Shown: piece by piece, positions 37,673-40,947 of the stretch
Position numbering within the stretch: the first letter of the stretch is position 1
Layout: every line of letters begins with the position of its first letter
Origin: an uncultured Clostridia bacterium
GTDB lineage: Bacteria; Bacillota; Clostridia; TANB77; CAG-508
NCBI GenBank assembly: GCA_944387525.1
Contig: CALXFF010000004.1
Span: 1,938-65,937, forward strand
Length of the DNA stretch: 64,000 nucleotides
Direction of reading: 5' to 3'
Program-made: the position numbers and the translations under genes
The notes under the pieces: generated by a model
Seen by the model: only the letters and a program-made list of their open reading frames with translations
The model's database searches: none
What the model was told of the DNA's origin: nothing

Positions 37673-39502
37673 ATGGCTGGATTTAATAATATTTATATAA
37701 CAACAGAAGGAGCAAAACTAGCAGCTAAAACAATAGAGGGGAAAATATTAAAATTTTCTCATGCAAAATTAGGTAGTGGAACATTATCAGATACAAGTGT
37801 AAGTGCTATAAAACAAAGAACATCATTAGTAAAATCTGTAATGGAATGTGATATTTTAAAAGCAGAAAAAACAGGGGACACACAAGCTACAGTTAGTTTT
37901 TTATTAAAAAATACAGAAGCTGATAGTCCTTTTTATTTTAGAGAATTAGGAATTTTTGCAATAGATCCAGATACTCAAAATGAAGTATTGTATGCTTATG
38001 CAAATGCTGGAAGTAATGCAGAATATATCAACAATTCAGTAAGTGAAATCGTAGAAAAATATATCAATGTAGTTATTACAATTGATAATGCAGATAATGT
38101 AAGTATTACATTAGATGGAACACAAATATATGTAACAGAAGATGAGATGAATCAAGCAATAAAAGAAGCAATTACGAAGAAAGGAAATTTATATGGAATA
38201 AAAAGAAAAGTAAATGATAATACTTCAGCAGCTTGGGAAAGGATTGAAGATTCAATAGGATTAATAGCAAAAGCTACAAAAGATGGAGAGGCAGTTCAAA
38301 ATGATTTTGATACTAGATATCCTTGGTCAGAAATAATTTCTTATAATTATGATGTAACAAATAAAAAAATTAATGCATATTATGGAGATCCAACGTTTAA
38401 GTTCGACGGAAGCAATGGAGAAGTCTTAACAAGAATTCCAGAATTCTATTGGAAAAGAGAAATTGTTGATGGATACGAATATATTTATATAGCAGATTAT
38501 GCAATAGCAGGATTTAATAAATCAGAACAATTCTCTGTTGGAAGATATGATGCTTGCATAGATGAAGACGGAAAATTACATAGTTTTAGTGGATACAGTC
38601 CTTCTACAAATATGAATATTACACAACATAGAGCAGCAGCAGAACTATTAAGTGATGAATTTAGCATGATTGACTATAGATATTTCTTATTACAAATTCT
38701 ATATTTAGTAGAATATGCAAATAATAATTCACAATCACAATTAGGTAATGGAATTGTAGGAATTAGATATAATAGTGCTGATGCAGCTATTATTGCGGGA
38801 GAAAGCACAAACACAATAGTAATTCCAACTAATACAGATTTTAAAGTAGGACAACAAATTGCTATTGGAACAACAGTAGATGGAGTAAGTATTTGTAAAG
38901 ATAGAACTATAACAGAAATAGAAGACTATAGTCAAAGTACAACGGAAGGAACAGCTATAACCTTTGACGGAGATCCTGTTGATATTGCAATTGGTAATAT
39001 AATCCACGCTTGTGGACAAAAAGAAGGTGGATGTGATAACTTAGGGATGAAATCAGGTTGCCTAGCAAATGATAGTCAACATGCTGTAATATATAGAGGA
39101 ATAGAAAATATATTTGGAAATGTATTCAATTGGATAGATGGAATTAATATTAAAGATTGTCAAGCATATATATGTTATGATCCATCACAATATGTTTCAG
39201 ATAAATTTGAAGCACCTTATGAAAAATTAGGATATGTAAATTCAAAAACAAACGAGTCTTATGTAAAAACAACAGGTTATGATGAGAAACATCCAATGGT
39301 AGCATTACCAATTGAAGGAGGAGCAGGATCAAGTTCAGGATATTGTGACTATTATACATGCTCTGAAACAGGAAACCGTGTGGCTCGTGTGGGTGGCAGC
39401 TTCGGCAGTGGTGCGAATGCCGGGCTTTGGTACTGGGGTTGCTACGGCTCTTCGACCAGTTCGAGCTTGGTTTGCGGGGCTCGTCTTCTTAAAAACCAGT
39501 AA
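37673..39502 (+). CDS. Tail fibre / receptor-binding protein; DGR target with a C-terminal variable region
   Basis: Tail-collar-like N-terminus. The C-terminal ...VARVGGSFGSGANAGLWYWGCYGSSTSSSLVCGARLL is encoded by the VR. Confidence 0.85.
   Translation: MAGFNNIYITTEGAKLAAKTIEGKILKFSHAKLGSGTLSDTSVSAIKQRTSLVKSVMECDILKAEKTGDTQATVSFLLKNTEADSPFYFRELGIFAIDPDTQNEVLYAYANAGSNAEYINNSVSEIVEKYINVVITIDNADNVSITLDGTQIYVTEDEMNQAIKEAITKKGNLYGIKRKVNDNTSAAWERIEDSIGLIAKATKDGEAVQNDFDTRYPWSEIISYNYDVTNKKINAYYGDPTFKFDGSNGEVLTRIPEFYWKREIVDGYEYIYIADYAIAGFNKSEQFSVGRYDACIDEDGKLHSFSGYSPSTNMNITQHRAAAELLSDEFSMIDYRYFLLQILYLVEYANNNSQSQLGNGIVGIRYNSADAAIIAGESTNTIVIPTNTDFKVGQQIAIGTTVDGVSICKDRTITEIEDYSQSTTEGTAITFDGDPVDIAIGNIIHACGQKEGGCDNLGMKSGCLANDSQHAVIYRGIENIFGNVFNWIDGINIKDCQAYICYDPSQYVSDKFEAPYEKLGYVNSKTNESYVKTTGYDEKHPMVALPIEGGAGSSSGYCDYYTCSETGNRVARVGGSFGSGANAGLWYWGCYGSSTSSSLVCGARLLKNQ
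39378..39491 (+). repeat. DGR variable repeat (VR), 114 bp
   Basis: Aligns without gaps to 39636-39749. There are 16 differences, and every one falls where the TR has A. Confidence 0.95.
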
Positions 39503-39635
39503 AAGCGGGGGTATGGGGGCGGCCAGCCTCCATAGAAAATAACTAAAATATAGAATAGTTAAAATCTTTTCTTATAATATATATAATAATAATAGGGATT
39601 TGGTGTGTGATGAGTACCCTACGTTCATTTTGAGT

Positions 39636-39749
39636 GTGTGGCTCATGTGGGTGGCAACTTCAACAATGGTACGAATGCCGGGCTTTGGTACTGGAATTGC
39701 AACAACTCTTCGACCAATTCGAACTTGAATTGCGGGGCTCGTCTACTTA
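39636..39749 (+). repeat. DGR template repeat (TR), 114 bp, non-coding
   Basis: Contains 26 adenines and 10 in-frame AAY codons. The 88 non-A positions are identical to the VR. Confidence 0.95.
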
Positions 39750-39882
39750 TTTGTGATTATATTATTTTGTAGTACACATCATTTTCCATAGCACTTGCTA
39801 AAAATAAAGTCGCAACTGGATTAGTTTAGTAGCTTCTTTTAAGTGAAAGACTGATAGACAAAAATAAGAAAAGGACCAGGAT

Positions 39883-40947
39883 ATGAAGAGAGTAGGTAAT
39901 TTATATTCAAAAATATGTGAAAAAAGTAACATTCAAAAGGCAATAAATAAAGCATCATTAAGAAAGAAAAATAGGGAAAACGTTAAGAAAATAATAGAAA
40001 ATCAAATATTTTATATTGAAAAATTAAATAAAATTTTGAACAATAAAGAATATAAACCCAATCCCTACAGAGAGGTTAAAATACACGATGGAGTTAGAAA
40101 AAAAGAAAGAATAATATATAAACCTCAATTTTATCCAGATCAAGTTATTCATTGGGCTCTAATGTTACAGTTAGAGCCTATTTTATTGAGGGGAATGTAC
40201 TATTATTGCTGTGGCTCAGTAAAAAATAGAGGTATATTACATGGTGCAAAATATATAAAAAAAATTCTTGTTCGTGATAGAAAAAATACTAAATATTGTT
40301 TAAAGCTGGATGTAAAAAAGTTTTATCCATCTATAAATAAGGAAATTCTAAAACATAAATTTCTAAAAATAATAAAATGTAGAGACACATTAGATTTGAT
40401 AGATTTAATAATAGATAGTTCAAAGGAAGGATTGCCTATAGGAAACTATACAAGCCAATGGTTTGCAAATTTTTACTTACAAGATTTAGATCATTATATA
40501 AAAGAAGATTTACATGTCAAATATTATATTCGATATATGGATGACATGGTTATATTTCATAGAAACAAGAAAGAATTACGCAAAATAAAAGAGAAGATAG
40601 AAATTTTTTTAAAACAAGAAGATTTAAAACTTAAAGAAAATTGGCAATTATTTAAAACTGATAGTAGGCCACTAGATTTTTTAGGATATCGATTTTATAG
40701 AGGATATACAACTTTAAGGAAAAGTAATTGTTTAAGAATCAGAAGAAGAATAAAAAAAATATATAAAAAGAAAAGATTAAGTGTTAAAGATGCAGCAGCA
40801 GTATTAAGTTACAATGGTTGGATAAAACATTCAAATTCATATAAATTTGCAAAAAAGTATATAAATCCATATATAAACATTAATAAATGTAAGGAGGTTA
40901 TAAAAAATGAAAGAAGAAAACAATATAAAACCAGAGAAAAAATTTGA
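39883..40947 (+). CDS. DGR-type reverse transcriptase
   Basis: RT motifs KLDVKKFYPSI, GLPIGNYTSQWFANFYL (DGR-typical IGxxxSQ), YIRYMDDMVIF (YxDD) and LDFLGYRF. Confidence 0.9.
   Translation: MKRVGNLYSKICEKSNIQKAINKASLRKKNRENVKKIIENQIFYIEKLNKILNNKEYKPNPYREVKIHDGVRKKERIIYKPQFYPDQVIHWALMLQLEPILLRGMYYYCCGSVKNRGILHGAKYIKKILVRDRKNTKYCLKLDVKKFYPSINKEILKHKFLKIIKCRDTLDLIDLIIDSSKEGLPIGNYTSQWFANFYLQDLDHYIKEDLHVKYYIRYMDDMVIFHRNKKELRKIKEKIEIFLKQEDLKLKENWQLFKTDSRPLDFLGYRFYRGYTTLRKSNCLRIRRRIKKIYKKKRLSVKDAAAVLSYNGWIKHSNSYKFAKKYINPYININKCKEVIKNERRKQYKTREKI

Follow-up and report, generated by a model that had tools for sequence, protein, structure and literature searches.

We found that an uncultured Clostridia bacterium (TANB77; CAG-508; assembly GCA_944387525.1) carries, on contig CALXFF010000004.1, what is almost certainly a functional diversity-generating retroelement (DGR) of the accessory-less target-template-reverse transcriptase type, located in the tail module of a prophage that has a contractile tail, in this low-GC gut organism. 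The stretch of DNA analysed, hereafter the window, is 64,000 nt long, and all coordinates below are window positions. The DGR region (37673-40947, plus strand) contains a gene for a tail (collar) fibre of 609 amino acids (aa; 37673-39502), whose 3' end forms the variable repeat (VR, 39378-39491), followed by a non-coding template repeat (TR, 39636-39749) and a gene for a reverse transcriptase (RT) of 354 aa (39883-40947), all on the plus strand.

The two repeats differ at template adenines only. A base-by-base comparison aligned VR and TR without gaps over 114 nt at an offset of 258, with 98/114 identities, and each of the 16 mismatches fell on an adenine of the TR (13 A>G and 3 A>T). All 88 non-A positions of the TR were unchanged in the VR, as were 10 of its 26 adenines, and the probability that 16 random mismatches would all land on 26 adenines among 114 positions is very small (P = 4.1e-13). 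With its 38 codons, the VR closes the fibre gene apart from the final KNQ-stop, and it ends 11 nt before the stop codon. Read in the fibre frame, the TR contains ten AAY codons, from which no stop codon can be reached; nine of them are recoded in the VR (N>S/G/Y/V), and the remaining codon changes are H>R and T>A, besides a silent CTA>CTT. An initial annotation of this DNA, made from its letters, had reported the gapless alignment with its base and codon counts and had read them as the trace of adenine-specific mutagenic retrohoming. All of these figures were reproduced, a rigorous alignment gave no mismatch at a non-A position, and the proposed mutagenesis agrees with mismatches lying solely at TR adenines, both here and in the second VR allele described below.

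The same VR/TR pair was returned by an independent repeat finder as the largest direct repeat of the region. A BLAST search with the TR detected no third copy in the whole window, and the comparison showed no extension of the repeats past 39378-39491 and 39636-39749. VR and TR are separated by 144 nt, and the TR lies 133 nt before the RT start codon; neither gap contains an open reading frame (ORF). At their 3' ends, the two repeats have in common a GC-rich sequence (GCGGGGCTCGTCT) resembling an initiation of mutagenic homing (IMH) element, and they diverge right after it. The GC content is 28% in the window, 60.5% in the VR, 49% in the TR, and 70% in the region of a hairpin that follows the VR, and the stretch from VR to TR (39378-39749) stands out as a sharp GC island in this genome.

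Natural variation of the VR is confined to the same positions. The exact RT protein was found on further metagenomic contigs, one of which (L001) matches the window without a difference over 9,065 nt. Another contig, from a different sample (L002), has a TR, spacer and RT identical to those of the window and shows a single difference in 2,723 nt outside the VR, whereas its VR differs from the window VR at 18 of 114 nt, all of them TR-A positions; compared with the TR, 13/13 mismatches of the L002 VR are at adenines. The contrast between 18 changes in the VR and one in 2.7 kb of flank indicates that retrohoming took place after these near-identical genomes had diverged. Thus, this DGR has recently been active. 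The TR is identical in all four contigs L001-L004, and the VR of the window recurs in L001, L003, and the covered part of L004. In L004, an A>T change was observed at the equivalent of 39503, just past the stop codon, and is probably a sequencing error or an ordinary polymorphism.

The polymorphism restricted to TR adenines that the initial annotation had suggested looking for was thus seen among population contigs on an otherwise identical backbone, and it was also seen on a broader scale. Among the 120 closest fibre homologues, column entropy reaches ~3 bits at residues 576, 578, 579, 582, 589, 591, 592, 596, 598, and 600, which are exactly the residues encoded by AAY codons. Residue 587 (TAC) has an entropy of 2.2 bits, and elsewhere in the fibre the values are mostly below 0.3 bits, with means of 0.06-0.5 bits over 30-residue windows. 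The VR peptides of the 40 nearest homologues are all distinct (40/40), and they are held in an invariant scaffold, ..VGG.F..G..AGLW.W.C...S..S.L..GARLLKNQ.

The RT is of the DGR type, judging from its sequence. Its ORF, which had been called DGR-type on account of its PIGNYTSQ and YMDD motifs, is intact, contains an RVT_1 domain (PF00078), and carries LPIGNYTSQWFANFY and YMDD, with PIGNYTSQ as motif 4. Among all PDB sequences, the best match was the DGR RT of Bordetella phage (bRT, 8ub7; E 5e-32, residues 2-296), followed at a distance of about 20 orders of magnitude by group II intron RTs (E 7e-11) and retron-type RTs (~4e-10). Alignment with bRT showed that PIGxxTSQxFAN, YMDD, and the equivalents of R74 and I181 are conserved; the latter two residues of bRT reportedly influence adenine mutagenesis, according to work from the Ghosh lab. 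In PHROGs, the protein falls in phrog_1423 ('Reverse transcriptase', E 6e-111). It scored far below the cut-offs of the group II, retron, and Drt models of NCBIfam (for example, 84.9 bits against a cut-off of 300 for group_II_RT_mat, and 63 against 235 for the retron model). A search of 39300-40000 for RNA families gave no group II intron or retron RNA even at E<=1. These results support the assignment of the protein to the DGR RTs, apart from those of group II introns and retrons. The 90% cluster of this RT has 45 members, one of which was seen on 189 contigs as 'hypothetical protein [Caudoviricetes sp.]', and public records name the RT only 'hypothetical protein' or 'RNA-directed DNA polymerase'.

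The spacer between TR and RT contains a structured RNA that was absent from the initial annotation, as were the hairpin and the neighbouring genes described below. A covariance-model search placed the Rfam motif RT-18 (RF03021), the sole RNA found in the interval searched, at 39789-39868 on the plus strand, where it is full-length (1-84), scores 64.6 bits against a gathering score of 41.3, and ends 14 nt before the RT start codon. The motifs RT-1 to RT-19 were defined by Weinberg 2017 (PMC5737381), in which RT-10 was the TR-RT spacer of phage BPP-1 and other RT motifs were speculated to serve other DGRs. RT-18 was detected at the equivalent position in 10/11 related loci and in Lactobacillus phage LBR48, and because of this constant location it is taken to be the spacer RNA of the present DGR lineage. 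By analogy, RT-18 is presumed to be the counterpart of RT-10, scaffolding and priming cDNA (complementary DNA) synthesis.

A second cis element follows the VR. It is a GC-rich hairpin (39512-39534, plus strand; TATGGGGGC-GGCCA-GCCTCCATA) with a 9-bp stem and a 5-nt loop, GGCCA, starting 21 nt after the VR. In ~30 loci of the lineage, the form GGGGGC-GGYCA-GCCYCC follows the VR at a distance of 19-28 nt, and its six inner pairs are paired in 30/30 aligned loci; the closing C-G is replaced by T-A in five loci, and two more compensatory changes occur singly. The stem pair 39517/39529 is G·T(U) in 17/30 loci, which means that pairing is kept only on the sense strand, and this points to a hairpin maintained in RNA or in the single-stranded DNA of the top strand, and not to a symmetric cruciform. 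It has been reported that a hairpin/cruciform is required for efficient retrohoming of BPP-1 and that such hairpins have GC stems of 7-10 bp and GRNA loops and lie 4-34 bp after the VR (Guo et al., PMC3240598). The hairpin described here may be the counterpart of this target-recognition element. Folding energies were no better than those of shuffled sequences, either for the TR-to-RT region folded as one RNA (z = -0.15) or for the post-VR region folded as DNA (z = -0.57); the case for structure therefore rests on conservation and covariation and not on folding energy.

A consensus scan detected a sigma-70-like candidate promoter (TTAAAA-17-TATAAT; 39559-39587, plus strand) ~49 nt upstream of the TR, which is a candidate start of the TR-RT transcript. 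At the other end, directly after a small ORF of 85 aa that follows the RT, there is a palindromic terminator-like hairpin flanked by A/T runs (41150-41178). It was called on the minus strand, the T-run of the plus strand being part of an extended stem, and it probably ends the unit formed by TR, RT, and the 85-aa ORF.

The target of the DGR is a phage tail fibre with a Phage_tail_fib domain (PF12571) at its N-terminus and similarity to the tail proteins of phrog_5302. Its C-terminus, which ends in the VR, had been likened to the variable domains of C-type lectin (CLec) type, and structure prediction agreed with this suggestion. An AlphaFold model of residues 201-609 reached a mean predicted local distance difference test (pLDDT) score of 94.6 and a predicted template modelling (pTM) score of 0.92 with an alignment of 146 diverse sequences, gathered with a profile built on the VR domains of related loci; an earlier input of 32 sequences at >=78% identity had given a pLDDT of 39 and was unusable. 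Using Foldseek against the PDB, we obtained a single significant match, the variable protein TaqVP (5vf4; E 7e-9, probability 1.0, template modelling (TM) score 0.40-0.44), with weaker matches to Mtd variants (E 0.1-0.3) and TvpA (E 0.84). The profile of diverse VR domains also matched TaqVP among PDB sequences (E 9e-5), across the GIENxxGNVWxW motif and the VR, and aligned to the VR of Mtd at E 0.23. A profile of close homologues of the fibre C-terminus gave no match to PDB sequences. In BFVD, the model matched 38 viral proteins with TM up to 0.93, mostly named 'tail collar fiber' and from gut phages, including crAss-like ones. Taken together, the AlphaFold/Foldseek and profile matches to TaqVP support a CLec-type DGR variable-protein fold for the predicted receptor-binding domain. 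Pfam gave no match to this domain in the window and 45 relatives, so the FGE-sulfatase family does not reach it; because the fibre domain of this lineage is absent from Pfam, such targets go unannotated.

The initial annotation had described the DGR as complete. This holds only in the sense that VR, TR, and RT are all present, because there is no gene for the accessory protein Avd. Avd is present in about 74% of DGRs. None of 37 small ORFs scanned in the window matched the Avd-like Pfam family, although Avd is poorly conserved and a very divergent one may escape such a scan. The cassette has the target-TR-RT arrangement on one strand known as Architecture A1, which accounts for 75/372 curated DGRs (PMC5758913); avd-less DGRs make up 29% of the curated set and include an avd-less RT lineage (Wu et al. 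2018, PMC5758913).

To place this architecture in its lineage, we scanned GTDB species genomes for the RT and obtained 80 loci, nearly all in metagenome-assembled genomes from gut or rumen and nearly all labelled as Clostridia, Bacilli, Mollicutes, or Melainabacteria. About 55 of them carry a TR/VR pair of their own, with mismatches that are adenine-only or nearly so. In these loci, the TR lies 113-187 nt upstream of the RT and the VR usually 86-250 nt upstream of the TR, a spacing so tight that it leaves no room for avd. Because every relative with a clean TR/VR pair leaves too little space for this gene, the lack of Avd is the normal state of the lineage. In some relatives labelled as Bacilli or Mollicutes (L009, L014-L020, L027-L030, L036, L045, and L046), extra tandem TR/VR-like repeats were observed ~155-165 nt apart, and the VRs lie 300-1,200 nt from the TR, which suggests multiple repeat modules or several targets.

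A working model may be proposed from these elements. The repeat anatomy, the RT type, the RNA motif, the conserved hairpin, the fold, and the VR variation at TR-A sites are findings, whereas the transcript boundaries, priming from the spacer RNA, the part played by the hairpin, and a reaction independent of Avd are put forward by analogy with Bordetella phage BPP-1. A transcript would start upstream of the TR and span the TR, the RT-18 spacer, and the RT gene. The RT would copy the TR RNA into cDNA and misincorporate opposite template adenines, and the cDNA would then replace the homologous VR at the 3' end of the fibre gene, guided by the GC-rich 3' end common to both repeats and by the GC hairpin 21 nt past the VR. 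Because 10 of the 37 complete in-frame TR codons are AAY, up to ~1.5e14 peptide variants free of stop codons could be generated. These would be displayed on the invariant C-type-lectin-type scaffold at the receptor-binding tip of the fibre, so that the specificity for host receptors might shift.

It may be asked whether the element is instead a decayed, inactive relic, in which the VR/TR pattern records past activity, for instance before a loss of Avd. We consider this improbable. Such a relic would fit the lack of an Avd-like protein among the small ORFs, the cutting of the chaperone gene after the RT to 85 aa (see below), and the sharing of one VR by the window, L001, L003, and the covered part of L004. 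However, the RT has an unbroken ORF and all its catalytic motifs, and the TR, RT-18, and the hairpin are intact and conserved. The 18 VR changes of L002 stand against a single change in its flank. Related loci with a clean TR/VR pair have no space for avd either, mostly show many A-only mismatches, and belong with the substantial share of curated DGRs that are avd-less.

Several points nevertheless weigh against a functional DGR without accessory protein. Avd is missing here, though it is essential for cDNA synthesis in BPP-1, to our knowledge the only DGR to have been dissected biochemically; for this reason, the reaction mechanism in the present case is putative. Activity has been inferred from variation between samples, not from reads within a population or from experiment. 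The promoter and the terminator are consensus matches alone, and promoter-like sites were not enriched over shuffled sequences. Both VR alleles depart from the TR in the same way at repeat positions 10 (A>G) and 110 (A>T), counted from the first base of the repeat, and these two changes may represent a fixed boundary of the IMH/IMH* kind rather than mutagenesis. Finally, L004, which has 2.6x coverage, shows a C>T change at a non-A VR position (equivalent to 39448). It is the sole non-A change seen in the VR and is most simply explained as a sequencing error or an ordinary single-nucleotide polymorphism.

The other conceivable explanation, an ordinary duplication or gene-conversion partner of the fibre 3' end lying beside an unrelated retroelement RT (group II intron, retron, or defence), could appeal to the sub-threshold NCBIfam similarity of the RT to group II, Drt3a, and retron models and to its unspecific public names, but it has next to no probability left and is effectively refuted by scores far under the cut-offs, a DGR RT as the best solved relative, RT-18 as the only RNA found, adenine-exclusive mismatches (P = 4e-13 under random divergence), and the recurrence of the RT-TR-VR linkage in ~55 loci.

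We also analysed the genes around the functional DGR proposed here. The ORF after the RT is kept in ~50 loci, even where the phage flanks differ. In the window, it encodes an acidic protein of 85 aa (40907-41164, plus strand) and has its own AGGAGG site inside the 3' end of the RT gene, with which it is coupled in translation. Full-length homologues are also acidic, have 140-177 aa, and belong to PF16778 (E 1e-10 to 3e-22) and phrog_4912, two families of tail-fibre assembly chaperones. The 85-aa protein itself gave no Pfam or PHROG match and stops before the Phage_tail_APC motif (…YRQxLRDxxxQxGFPYxVxFP); the same truncation is present in L005 and L043. Judging from these homologues, the ORF is what remains of a tail-fibre assembly chaperone in this sub-lineage, namely its N-terminal half, and the TR-RT module therefore sits between the fibre gene and its chaperone. 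A new lineage-specific accessory protein replacing Avd had been considered as an identity for this ORF and was rejected on the basis of the PF16778/phrog_4912 homologues. The 'CH1' proteins described by Wu et al. (160-169 aa, pI 4.7) might be counterparts of this ORF.

Downstream, an ORF of 219 aa with an N-terminal hydrophobic segment (41180-41839) separates the chaperone remnant from the holin. This ORF gave no Pfam match and weak PHROG matches to families of unknown function, and it is kept in L064, L073, and L081 only. It is followed by a holin-like ORF, an amidase endolysin, and a pair of overlapping genes on the minus strand, which form an operon at the right end of the prophage and travel together in relatives. 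The upstream gene of this pair (43628-43876) encodes a Cro/C1-type helix-turn-helix protein (PF13443, E 1e-11), and the other (43252-43653) encodes a protein of 133 aa that consists of MutS domain I only (Msl-like; PF01624, E 1.2e-13).

The Msl-like protein aligns to residues 13-84 of Escherichia coli MutS; the mismatch-binding Phe is kept and Glu38 is replaced by Asn. The lysis genes separate its gene from the RT, which is 2.3 kb away and encoded on the other strand. In ~27 loci labelled as Clostridia, the gene was found 3.7-4.3 kb after the RT start, and it was not found in the flanks of loci labelled as Bacilli or Mollicutes. MutS-like (Msl/MSL) proteins have been described as DGR accessory factors (PMC5758913; bioRxiv 2024.11.15.621889), the published MSL-containing DGRs all had avd too (PMC5758913), and deletion of host mutS raised the output of a Bacteroides DGR 5-10-fold (bioRxiv 2024.11.15.621889). 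It is possible that the Msl-like protein is a DGR accessory factor, a link which is plausible and unproven. A more speculative proposal, which we think unlikely as a whole and still worth stating, is that this widespread gut-phage lineage retrohomes without Avd, with RT-18 as the sole RT scaffold and primer, and that the phage's Msl-like protein shields the heavily mismatched cDNA:VR heteroduplex from host MutS in Clostridia proficient in mismatch repair. If true, this would explain why the gene accompanies Clostridia-labelled and not Bacilli- or Mollicutes-labelled loci.

Domain and family scans showed that the window carries the genes of a contractile-tailed temperate phage, namely RecT, a DNA methylase, terminase, SPP1-type portal, capsid, sheath, tube, tape measure, baseplate J, and a Mu gp48-like protein, followed by the fibre, the DGR, and the lysis genes. 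Host genes (gltX, one for an SDR protein, and serS) begin at ~44.9 kb. The early region of the prophage includes, next to RecT and an SMC-like ATPase, a homologue of SpoVS (stage V sporulation protein S; 2642-2911, Pfam E 6e-37). A megablast search of deposited phages gave no match.

Phage tail-fibre DGRs are familiar elements, large numbers of which are catalogued from gut viromes, so the element as such is unsurprising. It is an unusually clean natural example, with an intact backbone that carries two VR alleles in different people, a high-confidence model of the fibre domain, and a full map of the cis elements (the TR, the RT-18 RNA, the IMH-like end, and the hairpin). Its class, that of DGRs without Avd, is the less-studied one, and the element identifies RT-18, so far an 'orphan' motif of Rfam, as the TR-RT spacer in a bona fide lineage of DGRs. 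For specialists, the points of interest are the Avd-less design, RT-18 as a DGR spacer, the hairpin with a 5-nt loop, and the nearby Msl-like gene. The RT-18 assignment, the top-strand-specific G·T/U pair of the hairpin, and the MutS-domain-I gene offer leads on how Avd-less DGRs function and evade mismatch repair.

Like BPP-1 (mtd-avd-TR-brt), the DGR described here has its VR at the 3' end of a gene for a receptor-binding tail fibre that adopts a C-type-lectin fold, a TR closely preceding the RT, adenine-specific substitutions, AAY codons, a structured TR-RT spacer RNA, a GC-rich hairpin shortly after the VR, and a homologous RT with PIGxxTSQ/YMDD and the R74/I181 equivalents. Unlike BPP-1, it has only a 144-nt non-coding gap between VR and TR instead of avd, its spacer RNA is RT-18 rather than RT-10, the hairpin loop has 5 nt (GGYCA) rather than the 4-nt GRNA, and the host is a Gram-positive anaerobe with 28% GC. 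By gene order, it resembles the Architecture A1 DGRs (PMC5758913), with target, TR, and RT on one strand and no avd, HRDC, or CH1 gene inside the cassette. It differs from the MSL-containing DGRs of Wu et al., all of which have avd, in that its MutS-domain-I gene is 2.3 kb away and avd is absent.

The nearest deposited phage is Lactobacillus phage LBR48 (NC_027990), whose RT is 52% identical. As in the window, RT-18 lies directly upstream of the RT, and a small ORF overlapping the 3' end of the RT gene is followed by holin and endolysin genes; the LBR48 protein gp02 has no detectable kinship with the chaperone family found here. LBR48 differs in its host, Lactobacillus, and in its GC content. 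Its TR is rich in N codons, ends in ...CGTCTCCTTAAG, and has nucleotide stretches in common with the TR of the window (AACTCTTCGAC.AA.TCGAAC.TGAA), which suggests that the template is either under constraint or moves along with the cassette. Upstream of the RT, in positions 1-700 of the LBR48 record (L085), which contains N bases, unannotated fibre-like motifs (DYRGIENMYGNLYQW) run straight into the N-codon-rich TR; the LBR48 TR seems to be embedded in a long degenerate copy of the 3' region of its target.

With respect to the diversified protein, the fibre domain is structurally nearer to TaqVP of Thermus aquaticus than to Mtd of BPP-1. The profile match to TaqVP covers the GIxNxxGNVWxW motif and the strand-loop region of the VR, at a sequence identity of 12-14% and a global TM of only 0.40-0.44. 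Unlike TaqVP, the fibre has an additional beta-rich insertion (model residues ~165-247) and an N-terminal tail-collar module, and whereas TaqVP is a cellular protein, the target described here is a phage fibre.

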